Shown piece by piece: positions 1 through 36,055 of a stretch of 36,254 nt of DNA. The stretch is taken from positions 1-36,254 of the IMG/VR virus record IMGVR_UViG_3300023223_000317; one strand, written 5' to 3'. Position 1 is the stretch's first letter. Every line of letters begins with the position of its first letter. This stretch comes from a virus (lineage: Duplodnaviria; Caudoviricetes). A program made the position numbers and the translations under genes. Below the pieces are notes generated by a model that made no database searches, had not been told where the DNA came from, and saw only the letters and a list, made by a program, of their open reading frames with translations.

Positions 1-144
1 GGTGATCAGAACGGCTTAAGCACAAGGCTTCAGGGCACCGATCAAAGAGGACTAATTGCTTCCCCTATACTTTTTCGCTTATCAGAGCGATCTGTATTAG
101 AATATTCGCATGTAGAATAGTATGCAAGTATTATTTTATGGAGG
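1..144. repeat. Terminal direct repeat, left copy (144 bp)
   Basis: Identical to 36111-36254 (ggtgatcaga...ttatggagg); indicates a circular or complete contig with unit length 36110. Confidence 0.97.
99..127 (-). promoter_or_regulatory. Putative sigma70 promoter driving the HNH-AP2 leader across the junction
   Basis: Minus strand TTGCAT-17 nt-TATTCT; the same site recurs at 36209-36237. Confidence 0.5.
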
Positions 145-368
145 CTAAAATGATTTGCACTAGTTGCGGAGAAGACGAAACAAAAACTACGTTTTACAAA
201 GCGTTGAGTGGTTACCGTCAGCCTTGTTCCACGTGCCTCAATTTATCCGCAAGAGAAAAGAGAGCGGTAGGACAGGCTTTTGAGCGTGAAATCTTTAGCC
301 AGGATGGTGGGTACTATTCTGACAACACTCCGGCCCTGCTCAAGATGATGCGACCAACTAAACTTTAA
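138..368 (+). CDS. Small Cys-rich (zinc-finger-like) hypothetical protein
   Basis: CTSC...CSTC motifs; GGAGG at 140-144 suggests the true start is ATG 150. Confidence 0.65.
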   Translation: MEAKMICTSCGEDETKTTFYKALSGYRQPCSTCLNLSAREKRAVGQAFEREIFSQDGGYYSDNTPALLKMMRPTKL

Positions 369-1351: not shown

Positions 1352-1379
1352 TTGCAATATTGGTGGATTAGCATAGAAT
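1352..1379 (+). promoter_or_regulatory. Putative sigma70 promoter
   Basis: TTGCAA-16 nt-TAGAAT; the predicted start near 1385 coincides with the first base of the following stem. Confidence 0.6.
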
Positions 1380-1384
1380 TGATA

Positions 1385-1449
1385 GTGCTGGGTGCAAGAC
1401 ACTTTGTTCCCATAGAAGAGGTTTTCCCCTTGGTTCGCCTCCCCAGCAC
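1385..1449 (+). ncRNA. C4-antisense-like or leader RNA module
   Basis: 8-bp closing stem GTGCTGGG/CCCAGCAC enclosing hairpins GTG-caaga-CAC and GAGG...CCTC with a pyrimidine-rich loop. Confidence 0.5.
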
Positions 1450-1534
1450 ACGATTTAATAAGAATGAAGGGCGTGTTTAAGCAGCTAAGGGTATGCAGTA
1501 CCTTTCCAATTATACCCCAAAACCGTTTTAAGCA

Positions 1535-1667
1535 GAGTTGTTATTTGTGGTGGCGATGCCCTGAAATAGCGTAAGGGAAGTCCTGTTGTTCAGGCTGTGC
1601 CGGTTGTGACCCAAGAGCGCGTTAAATACGATACGAGTCACCAGCGCCCCTTCAAATAACAATTCTC
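1535..1667 (+). ncRNA. Multi-branched structured element
   Basis: Closing stem TTGTTATTTG (1538-1547)/CAAATAACAA (1653-1662), then GGCG/CGCC, with internal arms CCCT/AGGG, CCTG/CAGG and GTGAC/GTCAC. Confidence 0.55.
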
Positions 1668-1685
1668 AGTTACATTCAATAACCA

Positions 1686-2325
1686 GGCTGATCCTGACGA
1701 AAACGCAGCCGACCAAAGTAACGTATAACTACCGCACCAGCCAGTAAGCCGAAAGGAAACTGGCAAAGCATGGTCTTAGATCGTGTGGATATAGAGGGGT
1801 GTGGACTGCTCACCACAAGGGGCAGGGCATAAACAGGCGTATGGTGATATATGAAATTGCACTTTACAAAAAAAGATTTCAAGATTGATTGGTTTAGCGG
1901 GACTGGCGCAGGTGGCCAGCATCGTAATAAACACCAGAACTGTTGTCGAATTACTCATATCGAGACAGGACTGCGCGCTCAAGGTACGGAAGCAAGAGAG
2001 CGTATATCCAATCAGAAGAAAGCTTTTGAACGTCTAACTAGATTACTAACATCTCATTATTCTGCTGACCCTGAAGGGCGTAGAAATACCTCAGAAGTCA
2101 TTCGTAACTATCATGCCGAAAGGAATGAGGTTAAGGATAAAGTTTCGGGTAAAACTATGCTTTATACAGATGTTGTCGGGAAAGGCGATATTGGCGAGAT
2201 GATAGAAGCTAGACGGCGTGCAATGATTGAAAAGTAGGGCAGTCCGGCAAGACTGAGTAATAAACTGTGACCTGATAAGTGTAGTTATATGATTAGTGGG
2301 CTATAGGATTATGGTAGGGATCACC
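1686..2325 (+). ncRNA. Long-range nested pairing domain enclosing the release-factor-like ORF
   Basis: Co-linear helices 1689-1695/2317-2323, 1707-1716/2293-2302 (2 mismatches), 1722-1732/2281-2291 and 1802-1811/2237-2246; GAAA tetraloop hairpin at 1740-1764. Confidence 0.5.
1851..2237 (+). CDS. Minimal class-1 peptide chain release factor homologue (GGQ peptidyl-tRNA hydrolase domain)
   Basis: SGTGAGGQHRNK...CRITHIETG...R...NQKKAFERL is the RF-1 catalytic domain signature; IRNYH...RNEVKD resembles the RF1/RF2 IRTYN...RVTD segment. Confidence 0.92.
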   Translation: MKLHFTKKDFKIDWFSGTGAGGQHRNKHQNCCRITHIETGLRAQGTEARERISNQKKAFERLTRLLTSHYSADPEGRRNTSEVIRNYHAERNEVKDKVSGKTMLYTDVVGKGDIGEMIEARRRAMIEK

Positions 2326-2370
2326 AACCCCTCTAATTGATAGCTATGCTTAATTAATGAGGAGAATGAA

Positions 2371-2559
2371 ATGTATGTGAATACCCCACCAAAACGATGC
2401 AGAAAGTGTGATTCTCTCCGTAACGAGACATTTACACAACCGGACGTGACTGGCATTAGGTGTTTGAAATGTGGACATGAGAGCCGAACAGTAACTACAC
2501 ATACTGAAAGTAGTGAATCTATAAAGTGGATAAGCACTGAAGTCAATAACGTATTTTAA
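2371..2559 (+). CDS. Zinc-ribbon hypothetical protein
   Basis: CRKC...CLKCGH; GAGGAG SD. Confidence 0.7.
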   Translation: MYVNTPPKRCRKCDSLRNETFTQPDVTGIRCLKCGHESRTVTTHTESSESIKWISTEVNNVF

Positions 2560-3023: not shown

Positions 3024-3052
3024 TTGACGGTATCGCGTTACTGTATTACATT
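3024..3052 (+). promoter_or_regulatory. Putative sigma70 promoter followed by a short hairpin
   Basis: TTGACG-17 nt-TACATT; ATGTAGA/TCTACAT inverted repeat just downstream. Confidence 0.55.
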
Positions 3053-3441: not shown

Positions 3442-3600
3442 ATGGCAAAGAACAAAGCAGCAATGATGCGCAGACTACGCAGAGAGCGCAAAGAGCAGGG
3501 GTTGGTCGAGTTGCGAGCATGGCTAACCCCTGATCACAAGTCAGTCATAGAGAGGCAGATAGAGTGCTTAAAGCGGGGCGCCGATGGAAATAATTCTTAA
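3442..3600 (+). CDS. Small basic protein, DUF3018/ribbon-helix-helix-like
   Basis: Hand-translated MAKNKAAMMRRLRRERKEQGLVELRAWLTPD...; the R..R..GL.....W pattern resembles DUF3018-type proteins. Confidence 0.55.
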   Translation: MAKNKAAMMRRLRRERKEQGLVELRAWLTPDHKSVIERQIECLKRGADGNNS

Positions 3601-3979
3601 TACCGGAAAATACCACCAGATCGACGATGCCGACATAATCAAGTGGGTATCACTCTATCCAGCTATAGATGTACATCAAGAGCTAAACAAGATGATAGCC
3701 TGGTGCGATGCTAATAAGTCTAAGCGCAAGACTGCAAAGGGTGTTAGCCGGTTTATCGTGAATTGGCTATCCAGGGCGCAAGACAAGGGTGGTAGCGGCA
3801 ATCCTGCGCAATACAATAATCAGCCAATGACTAATGCCAGTGATCTTCAGACGGATCTATCGTGGGTGCCAGAGGGCGAGCTAAAGGAGCAGACAAAGGC
3901 GCTGTTTATCAGCAAGTATGGCTTCTATTCTATAGCCGGTCAGCGAGTAACTGCAGCGCCGAAGATGATAGCTAATTAG
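3584..3979 (+). CDS. Replication-initiator C-terminal-like domain protein
   Basis: YPAIDVHQELNKMIAWCDANKSKRKT...RFIVNWLSRAQD resembles the C-terminal domain of phage replication (O/DnaT-like) proteins. Confidence 0.65.
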   Translation: MEIILNTGKYHQIDDADIIKWVSLYPAIDVHQELNKMIAWCDANKSKRKTAKGVSRFIVNWLSRAQDKGGSGNPAQYNNQPMTNASDLQTDLSWVPEGELKEQTKALFISKYGFYSIAGQRVTAAPKMIAN

Positions 3980-20761: not shown

Positions 20762-23080
20762 ATGCCCAAAATACCTCAATTTCAAGCTGATACACGATTA
20801 AGGACCGGTGGTGCGTCTATCAGCCCCGGCGCTGCTGGTGCTGTGAGTCAGGCTGTTTCGGGGCTTGCCACTACAGTCACAAGCATAGCTACAGCCGCTG
20901 TTAACCGTCAACGGGATGCAGAAGACGCGGCTTTTGCTACAGAGCAAAGTAATTCACTGTCTCGTCGATGGACTGAGCGACAAATAGAACTTGAGCAATC
21001 CGGTGAAGATGTTGATCTTGAAGGGCTGAAGAAAGAATACGACGATGATGTGGCCGCCACTTTAAAGAACGCGCCAAGTGATCGTGTATCAGCCTCATTG
21101 AAACGAACCTTTGATAACAACTTCAGCAATAAAGTATTTCCTTCCATGGCTCGGCATCAGGCCGGGAGGAATGTTGAGAAGCGTGTGTCCTCAGTTAATA
21201 CGGCCCTGGATGACATTAACTCAGAAGTCTTAACAGGTCGTACTGATATCACAGAGGCATTAGCTAGGGCTGAATCGGCTATTGTGGGCCTTGAACAGAC
21301 TACCGGCGGTGTTGTTGATACGGCCAAGTTGAGAGAATCGACCCGCAATGATATAGGTCGAAACGCCTTATCTTCGCTGATGGAGTCTGATCCACAAGAA
21401 GCTTTAAGTCAGATGAATGCCGGGGATTGGGATAAATTTACTAGCGCTGAAGATTTAAAGTTCCTGCGTAAATCGGCAAAGAAAAATATTGCGGACAATG
21501 CATCTATTGCACAAAAACAACAGGCCGCATCGAATGCGTTGCTTGCCTCTGATCTTGAGATTAGCGTTAACCGCAATGAAGCCACGTTTAAAGATATTGA
21601 CGACGCCCTTAAAAAGGGAATAATTACTCCGGCCAAGCGTACTCAATTAGTTAAATCCTTGGATGCTGAATCGTTAAAGTTAAGAGATGAAGCGAATATT
21701 CTCAGTAAAGTGCGGTTGTCTTTAGGTGCTGGAATACCGCTTGACCCTACGTCTACAGAGGACAAGGAAGGCGTTGATCTGATGTGGAATGAATTGGCCC
21801 CGAGTTATTCTGAACTGCCTGCTGATGAATTCTCTGCCAAAGCTGTAGATTTTATCAAACAGACCAATATTCTACCAGCTACCCTTAAAGGCTCAATTGC
21901 TGCATTCAGTCGATCAGGCGATACAGGGCAAGCCATGCAAGCGGCTGACCTGGTAGGGCGTATGGTTGAAGAAGCCTTACCGGCTGTTAATGATCTAACC
22001 GATGAAACAAAGGCTCAGAGCCTGATGATCATGGACCAAGTGAGAAGTGGTATCGCGCCAGGTAAAGCGATTGAAAACGCCCGAACAGCAACCTTTGGGC
22101 TAGTAGAAAGTGAGAAAGCTGTTATCAGGGAGCAATCCCGAATTGCCGCACCTGATTTAAAGAGCAGTCTTGATACTTTTGTTGATCAGACCTTTGATCC
22201 GTCCAACATCCCGTTCTTTGGCGAAGAGCCTGACGTTACCCCCGCCATGCTGGGTGAATACCGTGTTTCATTTGATCGTTTTATGCAATTAACCCGTGGT
22301 GATATTGAACAGTCTCAGAAATTAGCCTTTCAGGGAATTACTAAGGTATGGGGTGTGACCGAAGTTGGGGGTGAATCTCGCTTCATGAAGTATGCCCCTG
22401 AGTCTGTTTATCGTATCCCGGGGGTAGATAATCAGTGGATGGAGAATCAATTCAACGAGGAAATGGCTTTGCTGGGCGCAGAAGGTGCTATTTTAGCAAC
22501 AAATTCTGACGTTGCTCGATCTGAAAAACCGGCATATCCTATTTTGGTTCCTAATGAAGATGGATTAATTGAGCCTTTCACAGATGAAAATAATGTAGGA
22601 CAGACATGGCAGCCTGATTTTAAGCTTACGCTGGAATTTGAAGAGTTGAATGAAACTCCTTCGCCGGTCGAAGAAGCCAAGAAGCAACGAACTTTTAACC
22701 AGCAGCGGCGACAGGTTCATGTAAAGAGCATGGTGGAGACTCGCGTTAGAGGTGCGTTACCGTTTGAGATAAGGCTTGATATTGAATCGGATCGGGCCCG
22801 TGAACAGGCTGTCAATACTGTTGGCAACCTATTATCTGCTGAAAGAATCAACGGCCAAGAGGCTAAGCAGTATCTTGAATTGAGAGGGTTGGAATTTACC
22901 GAGCAAATGCAGGCCGTTATCGATAAGCAAAAGGGCGGCCGGGCAGCAAAAGCACAGTTCAGAAAAGAGCGTGAAGCAGCAGCCGCATTAGCCCGTGCAG
23001 AGTTTGTTGATGTTATAGGCGCTCCCGGTAGAGCTATAGCCAGAACCACTAAAGCCTTGCAAACATTGAGCAAAGAATAA
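20762..23080 (+). CDS. Internal virion (ejection) protein
   Basis: MPKIP start, 772 aa, mostly helical; position. Confidence 0.8.
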   Translation: MPKIPQFQADTRLRTGGASISPGAAGAVSQAVSGLATTVTSIATAAVNRQRDAEDAAFATEQSNSLSRRWTERQIELEQSGEDVDLEGLKKEYDDDVAATLKNAPSDRVSASLKRTFDNNFSNKVFPSMARHQAGRNVEKRVSSVNTALDDINSEVLTGRTDITEALARAESAIVGLEQTTGGVVDTAKLRESTRNDIGRNALSSLMESDPQEALSQMNAGDWDKFTSAEDLKFLRKSAKKNIADNASIAQKQQAASNALLASDLEISVNRNEATFKDIDDALKKGIITPAKRTQLVKSLDAESLKLRDEANILSKVRLSLGAGIPLDPTSTEDKEGVDLMWNELAPSYSELPADEFSAKAVDFIKQTNILPATLKGSIAAFSRSGDTGQAMQAADLVGRMVEEALPAVNDLTDETKAQSLMIMDQVRSGIAPGKAIENARTATFGLVESEKAVIREQSRIAAPDLKSSLDTFVDQTFDPSNIPFFGEEPDVTPAMLGEYRVSFDRFMQLTRGDIEQSQKLAFQGITKVWGVTEVGGESRFMKYAPESVYRIPGVDNQWMENQFNEEMALLGAEGAILATNSDVARSEKPAYPILVPNEDGLIEPFTDENNVGQTWQPDFKLTLEFEELNETPSPVEEAKKQRTFNQQRRQVHVKSMVETRVRGALPFEIRLDIESDRAREQAVNTVGNLLSAERINGQEAKQYLELRGLEFTEQMQAVIDKQKGGRAAKAQFRKEREAAAALARAEFVDVIGAPGRAIARTTKALQTLSKE

Positions 23081-26000
23081 TGCCTATCATCCCTGAGACT
23101 CAAGTGGCTGGCATTAACCCGATCCAGACTTTACCGAATCAGGAAGACCCCGTATTGGTTCAAGAAGACTCGCCTTCGGTATCTGAGGTCTTTGGTGCGG
23201 CTTTTCGACAGGAAAATACATTAGTCTCATGGGCTTCAAATAACCTTAGCCTGTCCGGCGAAAATGAACCTGTTGATGGCTATGACGCCTTGGATGATGT
23301 TGAAGGTTATGAGATGTTCGCTCAAAACTTCATTGAATCCAATAACCCAGGCATGACTTCGCGTATTAAAGAACAAATTGATTTAGAGCAGCAGGACAAA
23401 CAAACATTAGCCGCCGGCGGTGTTACAGGCTTTGTGGCTCAAGTCGCCGCTGGCATATCTGATCCTATGTATTGGCCTTTATTGGCTATTCCCGGTGGTG
23501 CGGCTATTCGTACCAGTAAAACGATAGGACAAGCCAGTAGAAGAGTCGCGGCAATAGGCGGTATATCAGAAATCCCAGCAGAGGCCGCAAAACAGTACAC
23601 ACAGGAAACTCGCACAGTTGGTGAGAGTCTTGCCATCATTGCAGGCGCAACGGCTCTATCTGGCATTCTAGGCGGTGCGGTGAAGTCCCTATCAAAGCAG
23701 GAATATAAATCGATTTCCAAAAAGGTCGATGATTTACTGCAAAATGACGAGCCAGAGCTTGTTACCGGCAATATGCAGAGTATGGGCGCGGCCAGAGTTA
23801 GGGAATTGACACAAGAGGAATTGGAGCTTGTGCCGGTTGCAGGACTTGAGAGCTTAGGCGTATCCCCGGTGCTTAGATCATCAACTTCTCCCTCTGTATC
23901 AACACGTCAAACTAATGCAAACATGATGGAATCCCCCTTTGTTACCAAGGGTAACGTGGAAGGTGTAACGGTTGTACCCGAGGGCGGTGCTGTAGAGACT
24001 CGCATTAAGCTATGGGATGCAGGGCTAGCTCAAGGTATCGAGAAGATTGATGAACTTTATACAGCGTATCGAAGTGGGCTGAAGGGCGTTAAGCGTATTG
24101 TTAATGATTATGTGATGCGGAATCGAGCGGGCGCATTAACGGCTAAAGAATTTAGAGAAGAAGTCGGTCGGACTATGCGCCGGGGCGATGTATCAGATAT
24201 TCCCGAAGTACAGCAAGCGGCTGAGTTTTTCCGCAAAAATGTCTTTGACCCCATGAAAGACGCAGCGATCAAACAGAAGTTACTACCACCTGATGTGGAT
24301 GTGGCAACAGCTGTATCCTATTTAACCCGTGTTTACAATACGACCAAGATAGCCGCTAAGCGGGGTGAATGGGACTCTGTTGTTGAGGGTTGGCTAGGTC
24401 GTATACGTGGCCGTGCGATCGCTGACGTTGAGGTAAGAAAAGTTGAAGCTGAAAAACAGATACCAGATGAATTTATTGAATCTGATATTTCTACATTGGA
24501 TCTTCTTGATAGAGACATTATTGATCGGCTCCCTGAATTTCAGCAAGATGCGGTCAAAGATTTTTCAGGGATCGGGTCGATTCAGATAAATAAAAAGCTT
24601 CGAGCAGGCGAAGACCCTAGAAGTCGTAGACTTTTAGGCAGTACCGAAGGGCTTGATTTTGCTATAGAAGAAGCTCCATTACCCTCTGATGTTAGACTTT
24701 TTAGAAAAATTGATGGTGCTGATGTGCCAGAGCTAAAAGAAAATCTTGCTGGGAAAACTTTTACAGATAAAGGCTATTTATCTACTAGCACAAAAGAAGA
24801 AGTAATACGAAAATTTGATGATAGTTTTGAAGGCGAAGCTAAAACTCTTAAGGAGCCAGTAATATTTAAAATTAATGCCGCCAAAGGGGAAGACGCACTG
24901 CCTTTGCCGGGTGCGGAAAAGGAAGTCTTATTACCAAGAAATGCTGTCCTGAATGTAGTTTCAGATGAGATTATAAAAGGGGAAAGAGTAATAGTTGCAA
25001 ATTATGGAGCTCCCAAAATTGGATTAAAGAAAACAAAAGCCCCAAGGATTTCTGCCTCTCTGGTCGAACAGGCAGAAATGTCAGATATAACGATCAAAGC
25101 CATTGCTGATGATATTACTAATGCCATTATGGGCAATGCTTCCGGGCGCATTCCTTATGAGATCATTCCCAATGTTCGTGGCCCACTGAAAGAGCGTACC
25201 TTCAATATCCCTGATGAGCTGATTGAGGACTTCCTGGAGTCTGATGTTGATTTGGTTGCGCGTCAATATACCCGGACTATGGCCCCTGATATTGAATTGA
25301 ATCGCATGTTCGGAAGTTCAGATTTAGCTCAGCAAGTTGAAGACATTGCATCCAGCTATAAACCTTTGATTGATAAGGCGAAAACAGAAAAGGACAGAAT
25401 TAAGCTCAAGAAACGCATGGAAGGTGATATTCGTGATATTGAAGCTATGCGTGATATGTTGCGCGGGACTTATCGAGTACCAGAAGATCCTGATTCGTTC
25501 TTTATTCGCGCCGGTAGAACTTTAAGGGATGTTAATTTCGTCCGCATGTTGGGTGGCATGACCATATCAGCAATACCAGACCTTGCTAGGCCCATTGCGG
25601 TTAATGGTTTACGGCCAGTAGCCAGAGGATTAAAGGCGTTGGCATTCTCTGGTGAAAAGTTCAAAATGGCTAAAGCTGAAGCCAAGAAAAATGCAATCGG
25701 CCTAGATATGGTGATTAATTCACGTGTGTCTTCATTGGCTGATATTACTGATATTTATAACCGGGCAACTCCGTTTGAGCGTGGCTTAAGGGCTATGTCT
25801 GATGTGTTTGGCAAAATGACCTTAATGAGTCAGTGGAATGCCGGTCTAAAGCAGTTTGTAGGTGTTGTCACTCAAGACAGAATACTGGAAGAGTCAATCA
25901 AGTTAGCTGCCGGTAAAGCCTCTAAAAACTCTATTCGTCGATTGGCAACAAGCGGTATCGATAAAGAGCTGGCAAAACGTATAGCAAGAGAGTTCAAAAA

Positions 26001-26694
26001 GCACGGCACAGATGGAGATGTTAAACTGTCTAACGGGCATTTATGGATTGATGATCAAGAGGCTATGGAGGCCCTAAAGGCTGCTGTACTGAAAGATGTT
26101 GATAGGGCCATAATTACACCAGGCAAAGGTGAAAAACCGCTGTGGACCAGCTCAGAGACAGGAAAGATGGTATTCCAGTTCAAGAGCTTTGCCGCTTCAG
26201 CTCATCAAAAGATATTAATTGCTGATTTGCAGCATCGAGATGCACAGGCTTTGAGTGGGTTCCTAATGTCTGTAGCCCTTGGCTCAGCTAGTTACGGAAT
26301 GAAAGAATTCGTTGCAGGGCGTGAAATATCTGATGATCCGAGTAAAATACTCGTAGAGTCGCTGGATAGATCAGGGGCTTTCGGTTATTTTTGGGATACG
26401 AACAACATTATTGAGAAGATGACCCGTGGTGAGGTAGGTGTTAATAAGCTGATTGGTGCACCTCCTATGTCACGTTATCAGTCACGCAATATATTAGGGT
26501 CGTTACTTGGGCCTTCAGTCGGTACAGTCCAGGATATAGCGCAAATAACCGGAGCTATATCGACCGGTGAGATTGGTAAAAGTGAAATTCGTAAAATTAG
26601 GCGATTATTACCGATGCAGAATTTATTTTATATGCGTCAATTATTAACTGAATTAGAAGACAAAACAGCAGAATCATTAGGAGTGCAGCAATGA
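23080..26694 (+). CDS. Large internal virion protein with an inserted ADP-ribosyltransferase domain
   Basis: Ejection-protein motifs (AAFRQENT, YLTRVYN, QFKSF, LLP.QN) plus ART motifs R542, S568-T-S570 and E613-K-E615. Confidence 0.88.
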   Translation: MPIIPETQVAGINPIQTLPNQEDPVLVQEDSPSVSEVFGAAFRQENTLVSWASNNLSLSGENEPVDGYDALDDVEGYEMFAQNFIESNNPGMTSRIKEQIDLEQQDKQTLAAGGVTGFVAQVAAGISDPMYWPLLAIPGGAAIRTSKTIGQASRRVAAIGGISEIPAEAAKQYTQETRTVGESLAIIAGATALSGILGGAVKSLSKQEYKSISKKVDDLLQNDEPELVTGNMQSMGAARVRELTQEELELVPVAGLESLGVSPVLRSSTSPSVSTRQTNANMMESPFVTKGNVEGVTVVPEGGAVETRIKLWDAGLAQGIEKIDELYTAYRSGLKGVKRIVNDYVMRNRAGALTAKEFREEVGRTMRRGDVSDIPEVQQAAEFFRKNVFDPMKDAAIKQKLLPPDVDVATAVSYLTRVYNTTKIAAKRGEWDSVVEGWLGRIRGRAIADVEVRKVEAEKQIPDEFIESDISTLDLLDRDIIDRLPEFQQDAVKDFSGIGSIQINKKLRAGEDPRSRRLLGSTEGLDFAIEEAPLPSDVRLFRKIDGADVPELKENLAGKTFTDKGYLSTSTKEEVIRKFDDSFEGEAKTLKEPVIFKINAAKGEDALPLPGAEKEVLLPRNAVLNVVSDEIIKGERVIVANYGAPKIGLKKTKAPRISASLVEQAEMSDITIKAIADDITNAIMGNASGRIPYEIIPNVRGPLKERTFNIPDELIEDFLESDVDLVARQYTRTMAPDIELNRMFGSSDLAQQVEDIASSYKPLIDKAKTEKDRIKLKKRMEGDIRDIEAMRDMLRGTYRVPEDPDSFFIRAGRTLRDVNFVRMLGGMTISAIPDLARPIAVNGLRPVARGLKALAFSGEKFKMAKAEAKKNAIGLDMVINSRVSSLADITDIYNRATPFERGLRAMSDVFGKMTLMSQWNAGLKQFVGVVTQDRILEESIKLAAGKASKNSIRRLATSGIDKELAKRIAREFKKHGTDGDVKLSNGHLWIDDQEAMEALKAAVLKDVDRAIITPGKGEKPLWTSSETGKMVFQFKSFAASAHQKILIADLQHRDAQALSGFLMSVALGSASYGMKEFVAGREISDDPSKILVESLDRSGAFGYFWDTNNIIEKMTRGEVGVNKLIGAPPMSRYQSRNILGSLLGPSVGTVQDIAQITGAISTGEIGKSEIRKIRRLLPMQNLFYMRQLLTELEDKTAESLGVQQ

Positions 26695-35425: not shown

Positions 35426-36055
35426 TTAAACGGCTGAACGTAATTTATATGCTCTTAATAACAGAGCATGTTTTGCTAGCGGGTTTAGTTGTAATTGTGC
35501 GACTCGTTCTATTTCGTCAGCTTTTGCAGCTTTGTAGGCGGCTTCGGCTTCTTCTGGGGTTTTGTATAGGCCTAGGAACTTCTTTTTCCCATTAATTCTT
35601 AGGTCAGCTTGGAATAGTTTTTTTCTCTTGTGTAAACAGACACCTTTAGGATGCTTGCCTCTTTGTGCAGTTTGATTATTAAGCAATTTATTTGTGTGTT
35701 GATCGATAAACACGCAAGATTCTGCGCTGTATATTTTATTATCTGGAATGAGAATATCTTTATCTAAGCACATTCCTTCCCAGTATTTAGTTTTCATCCA
35801 TTTCTTAAAATTAGAAAATAGTAACCATTCGTCAGCTACAGTGCAGCCACGATACGTTGGCCATCTTTTTTGATATTTATCTGAATAGCATCTCTCTAGC
35901 ATGTTCACCCAGACTTGATAATACGGACACACGACCTGACTGCCACGCACAACCGGACTAGTTACATAATCAGAATCATTGATTCCGACTCCATAAAGAG
36001 ATTTTCGGAGAGAAATAGATATTTTATTAGCTGGTTTTTCTACGAATGAACTCAT
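35426..36055 (-). CDS. HNH homing-endonuclease-like protein with C-terminal AP2 DNA-binding domain
   Basis: YGVGIND...W.NMLERC...Y.GC.V..EW..FSNF..W...LDKDIL...YS.E.C.F; KKKFLGLY.TPEEA..AY. Confidence 0.88.
   Translation of the reverse strand: MSSFVEKPANKISISLRKSLYGVGINDSDYVTSPVVRGSQVVCPYYQVWVNMLERCYSDKYQKRWPTYRGCTVADEWLLFSNFKKWMKTKYWEGMCLDKDILIPDNKIYSAESCVFIDQHTNKLLNNQTAQRGKHPKGVCLHKRKKLFQADLRINGKKKFLGLYKTPEEAEAAYKAAKADEIERVAQLQLNPLAKHALLLRAYKLRSAV

Follow-up and report, generated by a model that had tools for sequence, protein, structure and literature searches.

A candidate family of pseudoknotted phage RNAs with a variable slot that can hold a release-factor-like gene

The stretch of DNA analysed here (36,254 bases, referred to as the window) carries direct terminal repeats and represents an entire phage genome, whose terminase is ~49% identical to proteins of Vibrio, Cobetia and Pseudomonas phages. 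The locus under study lies between leftward small genes, which end at 1320, and a rightward gene run reaching a gene at 3584-3979 with a weak replication-initiator match (E 9e-4). The original prediction had placed a promoter at 1352-1379, and a sigma-70-like site was indeed found there on the plus strand (9/12 matches, predicted start near 1386). It also held that the downstream DNA encodes an undescribed large phage RNA, or forms an ssDNA structure, in which a gene with a GGQ motif is embedded; this gene was confirmed at 1851-2237 (+), codes for 128 amino acids and matches Pfam RF-1 with E 9e-17. Elsewhere in the genome, an HNH endonuclease gene (35426-36055, minus strand) and a small zinc-finger/HNH-like gene (138-368, plus strand) flank the genome end, ~1-2 kb from the RNA locus. 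An internal virion protein of 1204 amino acids is encoded at 23080-26694, and by eye a segment around residues 500-610 seems to be ADP-ribosyltransferase-like, with an R, STS, E-x-E pattern.

The 128-aa protein corresponds to the C-terminal third of a class I release factor. It aligns to residues 230-360 of RF1/RF2 and is devoid of the N-terminal and stop-codon recognition domains; on curated prfA/prfB models it covers residues 209-348 only and reaches 51-54 bits, against cut-offs of 370-423. For PrfH and ArfB the respective figures were 41 versus 167 bits and 23 versus 100 bits. The GGQ hydrolysis domain is common to this protein, RF1/RF2, ArfB and PrfH. The ORFs adjoining the RNA encode 50-131 amino acids, so that the gene has no neighbour of the size of RtcB, the neighbour that PrfH would have. 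Since the stop-codon domain is missing, the protein should be unable to read stop codons, and judged by its sequence it would act either as a peptidyl-tRNA hydrolase that ignores the codon or as a decoy. It belongs to a family of stand-alone GGQ fragments of 125-160 amino acids (2468 proteins at E<=1e-10, 254 viral loci), many of them in phages and in very mixed gene settings. GGQ is invariant in all 31 aligned relatives (31 of 120 listed among the 2468 matches), as are GGQHRNKH and NCC among those aligned. We found no description of this protein family in the literature on phage release factors; in the parts of a survey available to us, RF1, RF2, ArfB and PrfH were the only bacterial release-factor paralogues named (PMC6514570).

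Taken alone, the window makes a weak case for a structured RNA. All four pairs of complementary stretches postulated around the gene are present, yet the energy of the flank-to-flank duplex was matched by 7.5% of 1000 shuffles and the longest helix, of 11 bp, by 17% of 300 shuffles. The expectation that the region folds better than shuffled controls was borne out for the core with the ORF excised (z -2.0 to -2.7) and not for whole regions, whose values are uninformative (1380-2335, z -0.7; 1380-1850, z 0.0). It is the comparison with relatives that settles the structure.

Such relatives came from pattern scans. True relatives were recognized in two of 71 metagenome loci (L085 and L152, with the same core) and, among viral sequences, in two of five and then in 11 of 76 loci including those two. 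The resulting family comprises 12 other distinct sequences, namely 11 IMG/VR phage contigs and one metagenome contig pair; the carriers are phages from water samples. The family core spans ~260-340 nt and corresponds to 1719-1850 plus 2235-2345 of the window. Ten compared cores are 42-88% identical, with L297/L315 at 88% and L300/L338 at 78%. A covariance model built from eight relatives recovered four held-out ones at 70-123 bits, the best unrelated score among the 76 loci being 8 bits; in the window the ORF divided its match into two pieces (86 and 42 bits). Each of the five near-complete carriers searched has one copy of the RNA, and in none of them was a relative of the window phage's terminase detected, which indicates that the RNA spans phage lineages.

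Further pattern scans yielded no new member (0/2 loci, 0 loci, 0/37 and 0/8), and the two true loci among 44 in another scan were already in the family. None was found in 401 sampled genomes from the class of a gammaproteobacterial genome, nor among 34 GTDB loci, where the pattern was too lineage-specific to indicate absence. BLASTn gave no real match, either for the window region and five relatives' cores against cultured phages or for one relative's core against plasmids. In line with the notion of an undescribed RNA, Rfam 15 had no match in the window at gathering score, and at E<=10, E<=1 or E<=0.5 the window and the 12 relatives showed weak unrelated matches, in the relatives none over the core. 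An 18-nt identity between window positions 2314-2331 and the Rfam consensus of the Coxiella sRNA CbSR1 (16 versus 146 bits, E 2.6) was rejected; it is probably due to chance, because it falls in a part that varies within the family. Likewise, the 85-nt insert just 5' of the L152 core (1669-1738, minus strand) resembles RAGATH-13 too weakly to count (18 versus 80 bits, E 1.6). A prior description of the RNA was not found in the literature searched, and its motifs had no match in seven supplementary files of PMC10690425 (those other than files 1 and 2) or in one supplement of PMC10085705; it may be among candidates in supplementary lists outside this motif search. Judged by its sequence comparisons, the family is almost certainly real.

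The consensus fold was derived with RNAalifold from an alignment of eight relatives; L297, L315, L316, L341 and the window were left out because of their long inserts. It contains 47 pairs, 32 of them with two-sided changes, and with the candidate pseudoknots added 29 of 57 pairs change on both sides. In total, 90.7% of 441 alignment cells pair, as opposed to 73% in shuffled and 33-42% in slid controls, which ignore relatedness. The postulated 11-bp stem 1722-1732/2281-2291 (+) turned out to be the closing helix of the family: all nine of its consensus pairs change on both sides and 92% of cells pair. An outer closing helix, 1707-1716 with 2293-2302 (+), is supported by complementarity in the window and, by eye, by extensions in L284 and L287 that look similar and differ in sequence. 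The remaining two stems give way to other partners in the family. The strands of 1802-1811/2237-2246 form local hairpins in the family (1806-1825 and 2240-2255); the long stem is possible in the window lineage, where it competes with these two hairpins, and across the eight aligned relatives pairing is confined to its invariant 4-bp end. For 1689-1695/2317-2323, the conserved partner of 2317-2326 proved to be 1842-1848.

Five elements of the family structure are absent from the original prediction: stem 1733-1738/1798-1803, hairpin 1768-1786, stem 1834-1837/2271-2274 and both pseudoknots. The first of these stems closes core domain 1 (1733-1803, +) of the consensus fold, in which one consensus pair (30/113) is AU in four relatives, UA in three and GC in one. 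Inside it lie the predicted GAAA hairpin (1740-1764, +), whose GAAA loop is kept in 13 of 13 sequences, the hairpin 1768-1786 (+), a conserved GGAU and the pseudoknot 1 strand 1792-1797. The window's own minimum-energy fold of 1733-1830 equals the consensus structure (z -2.8). Hairpin E (1806-1825, +; CUGCUC/GGGCAG) varies in sequence across the family and is followed by a conserved junction, GGCAUAAA, with an invariant CAGG (1826-1837, +). This CAGG pairs with CCUG in stem 1834-1837/2271-2274 (+), the four pairs of which are invariant and hence without covariation. The stem encloses strand 1842-1848, the variable slot and the hairpin 2240-2255 (+), which carries the near-invariant loop CGG(C/U)AA at 2245-2250 (helix 10 of the consensus; 100% paired, two of four pairs covarying). 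On the 3' side follow a junction with conserved AAACURUR, CCUG and AUAA(G) (2262-2279, +) and a loosely conserved 3' motif (2338-2351, +), which may mark where the RNA ends or, in some relatives, serve the following promoter as its -35 box; a -35-like hexamer was seen there in six of 13 sequences at a lenient cut-off of 8/12. The GAAA hairpin was also compared with domain 5 of group II introns, of which an AGC triad is a feature; this likeness was discarded, the triad being absent in L287, L294, L297, L300, L315 and L338.

The kinds of pairs further bear on the form in which the element is read. On the plus strand 32 cells hold G-U, eight of them from one invariant pair, versus 11 with A-C, which favours an RNA made from that strand and, together with the GAAA loop in 13 of 13, disfavours the ssDNA structure first offered as an option. 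Among the eight aligned relatives, 53 columns are invariant and many of these are unpaired.

The tail of the RNA (2320-2335, +) is predicted to enter two adjacent pseudoknot helices, which we examined in an alignment-free manner in all 13 sequences, by shuffles and permutations. Pseudoknot 1 joins 1792-1797 to 2330-2335 (+), varies in sequence and has no bulge; each strand favoured its own partner with p<=0.005 in 13 of 13, and none of 20,000 permutations did as well. Pseudoknot 2 joins 1842-1848 to 2320-2326 (+), with a duplex energy of -10 kcal/mol; here the own partner did better than shuffles in 11 of 13 sequences (p<0.05), and again none of 20,000 permutations was as good. On the unadjusted alignment its pairing does not go beyond 69%, owing to strands that are shifted in register. 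A third pseudoknot between the CGGYAA loop and the 3' tail was rejected (permutation p 0.26), and a pairing of 2315-2325 with 1551-1563 was dropped in favour of 1842-1848.

Upstream of the core the RNA is variable. In the window this 5' region contains a hairpin module at 1385-1449 (+; z -2.6) and a long branched hairpin at 1535-1667 (+; z -1.9), the latter outside the family core. A hairpin in a similar position in L287 has z -3.6, and a three-way alignment of L152, L287 and the window was poor. A contig of 5.9 kb, termed X1, matches the window at 1380-1545, 1724-1856 and 2235-2340, with unrelated flanks outside. It keeps 1380-1545 with 14 other letters and seven gaps, none of the listed changes falling in the closing stem of 1385-1449. 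The similarity stops right before 1380, where X1 has, by eye, its own -35/-10-like letters at the same distance.

The same contig shows what can happen in the slot. Between ATGAAA and TAG, 177 other letters replace 378 bases of the window; the frame from ATG to TAG is kept (186 nt), and the first ten codons after ATGAAA are open and unlike the release factor, so that X1 likely has a different 61-codon ORF in the same slot. Two short contigs (X2) add further variants: one keeps the release-factor gene behind a different hairpin (match to 1786-1948), and in the other 1837 runs almost straight into the 3' part. In the 12 distinct relatives the slot is without an ORF throughout and holds 22-113 non-coding nucleotides, whereas that of the window measures 405 nt. 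There are thus relatives that share the stems but have either no ORF or another insert. The GGGCAG repeat on both sides of the ORF had been read as a mark of gene insertion; ORF-less L287 has GGGCA at both places, and the repeat is therefore no insertion scar.

How would a gene in this slot be translated? GGUGAU at 1843-1848, two bases before the ATG, we take to be a Shine-Dalgarno-type element, and the strand 1842-1848 is likely the ribosome-binding site of the inserted gene. The same GGUGAU is the pseudoknot 2 strand; this sequence is confined to some members and is lost through covariation in others, so that the site probably arose as RNA structure and was exploited by incoming genes later. 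The fully folded RNA would hide the site, and a translated molecule would be one that is slow to fold. The site may not stay free until the tail is made, since in the nascent fold of 1733-1870 GGUG is already paired with the first codons of the ORF.

Gene and RNA also occur apart from each other. No RF-1 domain was detected in the ten carrier records searched (of 12; five at least 90% complete). Conversely, among the best 80 of the 254 viral loci with a relative of the gene, none matched the RNA model and none showed similarity in the flanks. Since most relatives have no insert, the RNA likely works on its own, and the gene is, by this comparison, very probably a passenger; the cargo option of the original prediction is thus supported by the relatives with no ORF or with another insert, the covariation and the lack of an Rfam match. 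Its other option, an RNA that works with the release factor at the ribosome, is not supported. Such a partnership would be a tmRNA-like rescue or shut-off pair of RNA and release-factor fragment, for which one may cite that the gene sits inside the RNA both here and in the second contig (X2, 1786-1948) and that GGQ is invariant in the 31 aligned relatives (of 120 listed). With RF-1 in none of the ten carrier records, the RNA at none of the best 80 gene loci, another insert in X1 and no tmRNA found by ARAGORN in the window or the 12 relatives, a pair of this kind is highly improbable. The statement that the locus has no tmRNA ends agrees with this, and the family model gave no match on the E. 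coli smpB-intA interval, where ssrA presumably sits. In the literature searched, we found no protein gene swapped into or out of a structured RNA other than a known intron.

The RNA is intergenic in the window and in all 12 relatives. Annotation of neighbours covered 35 ORFs (34 of 84 listed, plus one). A helicase, primase or initiator gene lies within ~2 kb downstream in seven of 12 relatives, and a replication gene is also found in the window; by annotation L152, L284, L300, L338 and L341 have no replication gene downstream. Overall the gene neighbourhoods are mixed, with helicase, primase, methylase, cro-like and HNH genes and the nin region. In L338 the RNA comes after a NinG/Rap gene; HNH genes adjoin it in L287 and L341. 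In L196 (2014-2718) the genes on its two sides are divergent, the one that it directly precedes being a cro-like repressor gene, and there is no convincing cI ORF where the cI gene would be expected. A simple scan found no terminator after the RNA in any of the 13 sequences, and in seven of 13 the first ORF begins 15-51 nt past the 3' motif.

The absence of a terminator and the replication genes downstream would fit a cis-acting leader as well as a stand-alone RNA. Such a leader would fold on the nascent early transcript, modify RNA polymerase or shield the message, and so drive the replication or late operon, in the manner of the RNA antiterminators HK022 put and EAR. The closely following first ORF is on the same strand in those seven of 13 sequences, and the replication genes in seven of 12 relatives plus the window point the same way. 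On the other hand, nine of 13 sequences have a further promoter-like site in the 200 nt after the RNA (lenient cut-off, without a shuffle control), the downstream gene differs between phages, and an ORF of 390 nt within the core would slow the folding. We consider the leader a possible, if unlikely, explanation. That the RNA often precedes an initiator, helicase or primase gene might also suggest a replication element, read as DNA or as primer RNA (an origin or R-loop primer), and the purine-rich G run at 1792-1803 would suit this, as would the likeness to ARRPOF, an RNA implicated in plasmid replication (PMC12990946, as far as available to us). We regard this as quite improbable, given that G-U exceeds A-C by 32 to 11, that L300 and L338 are without a replication gene in the 2 kb downstream, L338 following NinG/Rap, and that the carriers use unrelated replication systems.

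The 5' end may be made in different ways. Promoter-like sites lie 93-716 nt upstream of the core in nine of 13 sequences, at 93 nt in L297 and L315; these are weak evidence, because shuffles give about one per kb. In L284 a hammerhead ribozyme with an intact-looking core (2430-2508, minus strand; E 2e-4, below gathering score) precedes the RNA by ~250 nt on the same strand, and in L300 a tRNA-Arg gene lies upstream, the only tRNA within ~2 kb in 12 relatives, with none in the window. Promoter, hammerhead and tRNA are thus different possible makers of the 5' end. A tRNA-like module upstream of L287 was rejected, as ARAGORN reported it only at a lowered threshold that gave 12 hits in 4 kb.

Several further observations concern the surroundings of the RNA. 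The cloverleaf-shaped 70-nt module preceding it in L287 lies at ~2417-2488 (minus strand); the letters after this module are common to L152 and L287, and further upstream each of the two carries a long hairpin with a U run. An A-run together with a GC hairpin, likely a terminator for the opposite strand, recurs 170-330 nt before the core in L294, L316, L339, L341 and L345. A promoter of the type TTGAC-17 nt-TACATT is located at 3024-3052 of the window, 700 nt downstream of the RNA, and the same type stands directly after the RNA in L152 (1357-1329, minus strand) and in L192/L287 (L192 2324-2295, minus strand).

Group I introns offer a precedent, being folded RNAs in which a peripheral loop can accommodate an optional gene, and their order of stem, GAAA hairpin, hairpin and pseudoknot strand is loosely similar. 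A group I intron, however, interrupts a gene and has exons, whereas this RNA is intergenic and its cargo is not an endonuclease. As already claimed from the window alone, there is no group I core, with its guanosine-binding P7: Rfam gave no group I match, and the family model scored at most 7.2 bits on the T4 region holding the td and nrdB introns. It had no match on E. coli rnpB either, and an RNase P-like topology was rejected, since the P4 signature of E. coli rnpB, GGAAAGUCC with a bulged U, is absent from the family. A reverse transcriptase of the RVT_1 type, to be expected within or beside a group II intron, retron or DRT ncRNA, was found in none of the five near-complete carrier genomes.

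These comparisons bear on whether the family is a new ribozyme class, whose invariant core would cleave or ligate itself or a substrate in the processing of phage transcripts. The 53 invariant columns of the eight aligned relatives, many of them unpaired, would be in keeping with catalysis, as would the multi-way junctions, the two pseudoknots, the GAAA loop and the hammerhead adjoining the L284 RNA. Against it stand the lack of similarity to the T4 td/nrdB introns, E. coli RNase P RNA and the ssrA region, the fact that the RNA interrupts no gene, and the absence of any Rfam ribozyme above threshold; in our view a ribozyme is unlikely.

In kind, the RNA resembles three multiply pseudoknotted phage or plasmid RNAs of open function, with the qualification that it matches neither GOLLD, ROOL or ARRPOF nor any other Rfam 15 covariance model and would be a new family, unrelated to these. 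According to the parts of two reports available to us, GOLLD, a large ornate RNA of phages and prophages, is conserved in its 3' region and variable in its 5' region and sometimes embeds tRNAs as cargo, its function being open (PMC12286853, PMC12990946). Phage origin, pseudoknots, a conserved 3' and variable 5' part and the capacity for cargo are thus shared, as far as these parts go; the cargo of GOLLD, however, is tRNA and that of the window RNA a protein gene, and GOLLD measures ~375-800 nt versus ~290 nt for the core of the window RNA. ROOL, as portrayed in the part available, is a phage RNA too; it forms several pseudoknots, and no protein is known to partner it (PMC12286853). Several covarying pseudoknots and a 3' core with a variable 5' region are likewise found in our family, which differs in size and has no Rfam match. 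GOLLD and ROOL occur in tRNA arrays, whereas a tRNA is near this RNA in one of 12 relatives. ARRPOF, of ~255 nt and with four pseudoknots, is linked to replication and forms dimers (PMC12990946, in part). The RNA studied here is of similar size and often has replication genes as neighbours; ARRPOF comes from Fusobacterium plasmids, with no ORF slot described there, while the present family resides in phages and has a slot.

The reading we prefer, and to which we give roughly an even chance, is a stand-alone, stable phage RNA with a knotted 3' end that acts through its invariant loops, as a binding or self-assembly scaffold. Transcription from the 1352-1379 promoter would yield an RNA of ~950 nt here and of ~430 nt in L297 and L315. 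Its 3' tail would thread back into the two adjacent pseudoknots and resist 3' exonucleases, and the knot would set the mature end near 2335-2340, as no terminator follows. The GAAA loop, the CGGYAA loop and the AAAC and AUAA junctions would then be invariant exposed contact surfaces, as in GOLLD, ROOL and ARRPOF, and the RNA would act on its own early in infection. Where a gene has been inserted, it would be transcribed from the promoter of the RNA, with the GGUGAU strand of pseudoknot 2 serving as ribosome-binding site. A bolder version, which we find rather doubtful, would make the family a new class of phage RNAs that are catalytic or form cages and have an exchangeable gene slot built in, genes being swapped from start to stop behind the pseudoknot-strand ribosome-binding site; each transcript would become either a folded RNA machine or an mRNA, a switch that would time the expression of cargo such as a codon-blind peptidyl-tRNA hydrolase.

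As large folded phage RNAs, GOLLD and ROOL belong to a small number of RNA classes that still lack an assigned function. To these the present family would add an unrelated, small core that can be made in vitro, with natural deletion and insertion variants and with invariant loops to mutate, so that catalysis, self-assembly and antitermination would be directly testable.
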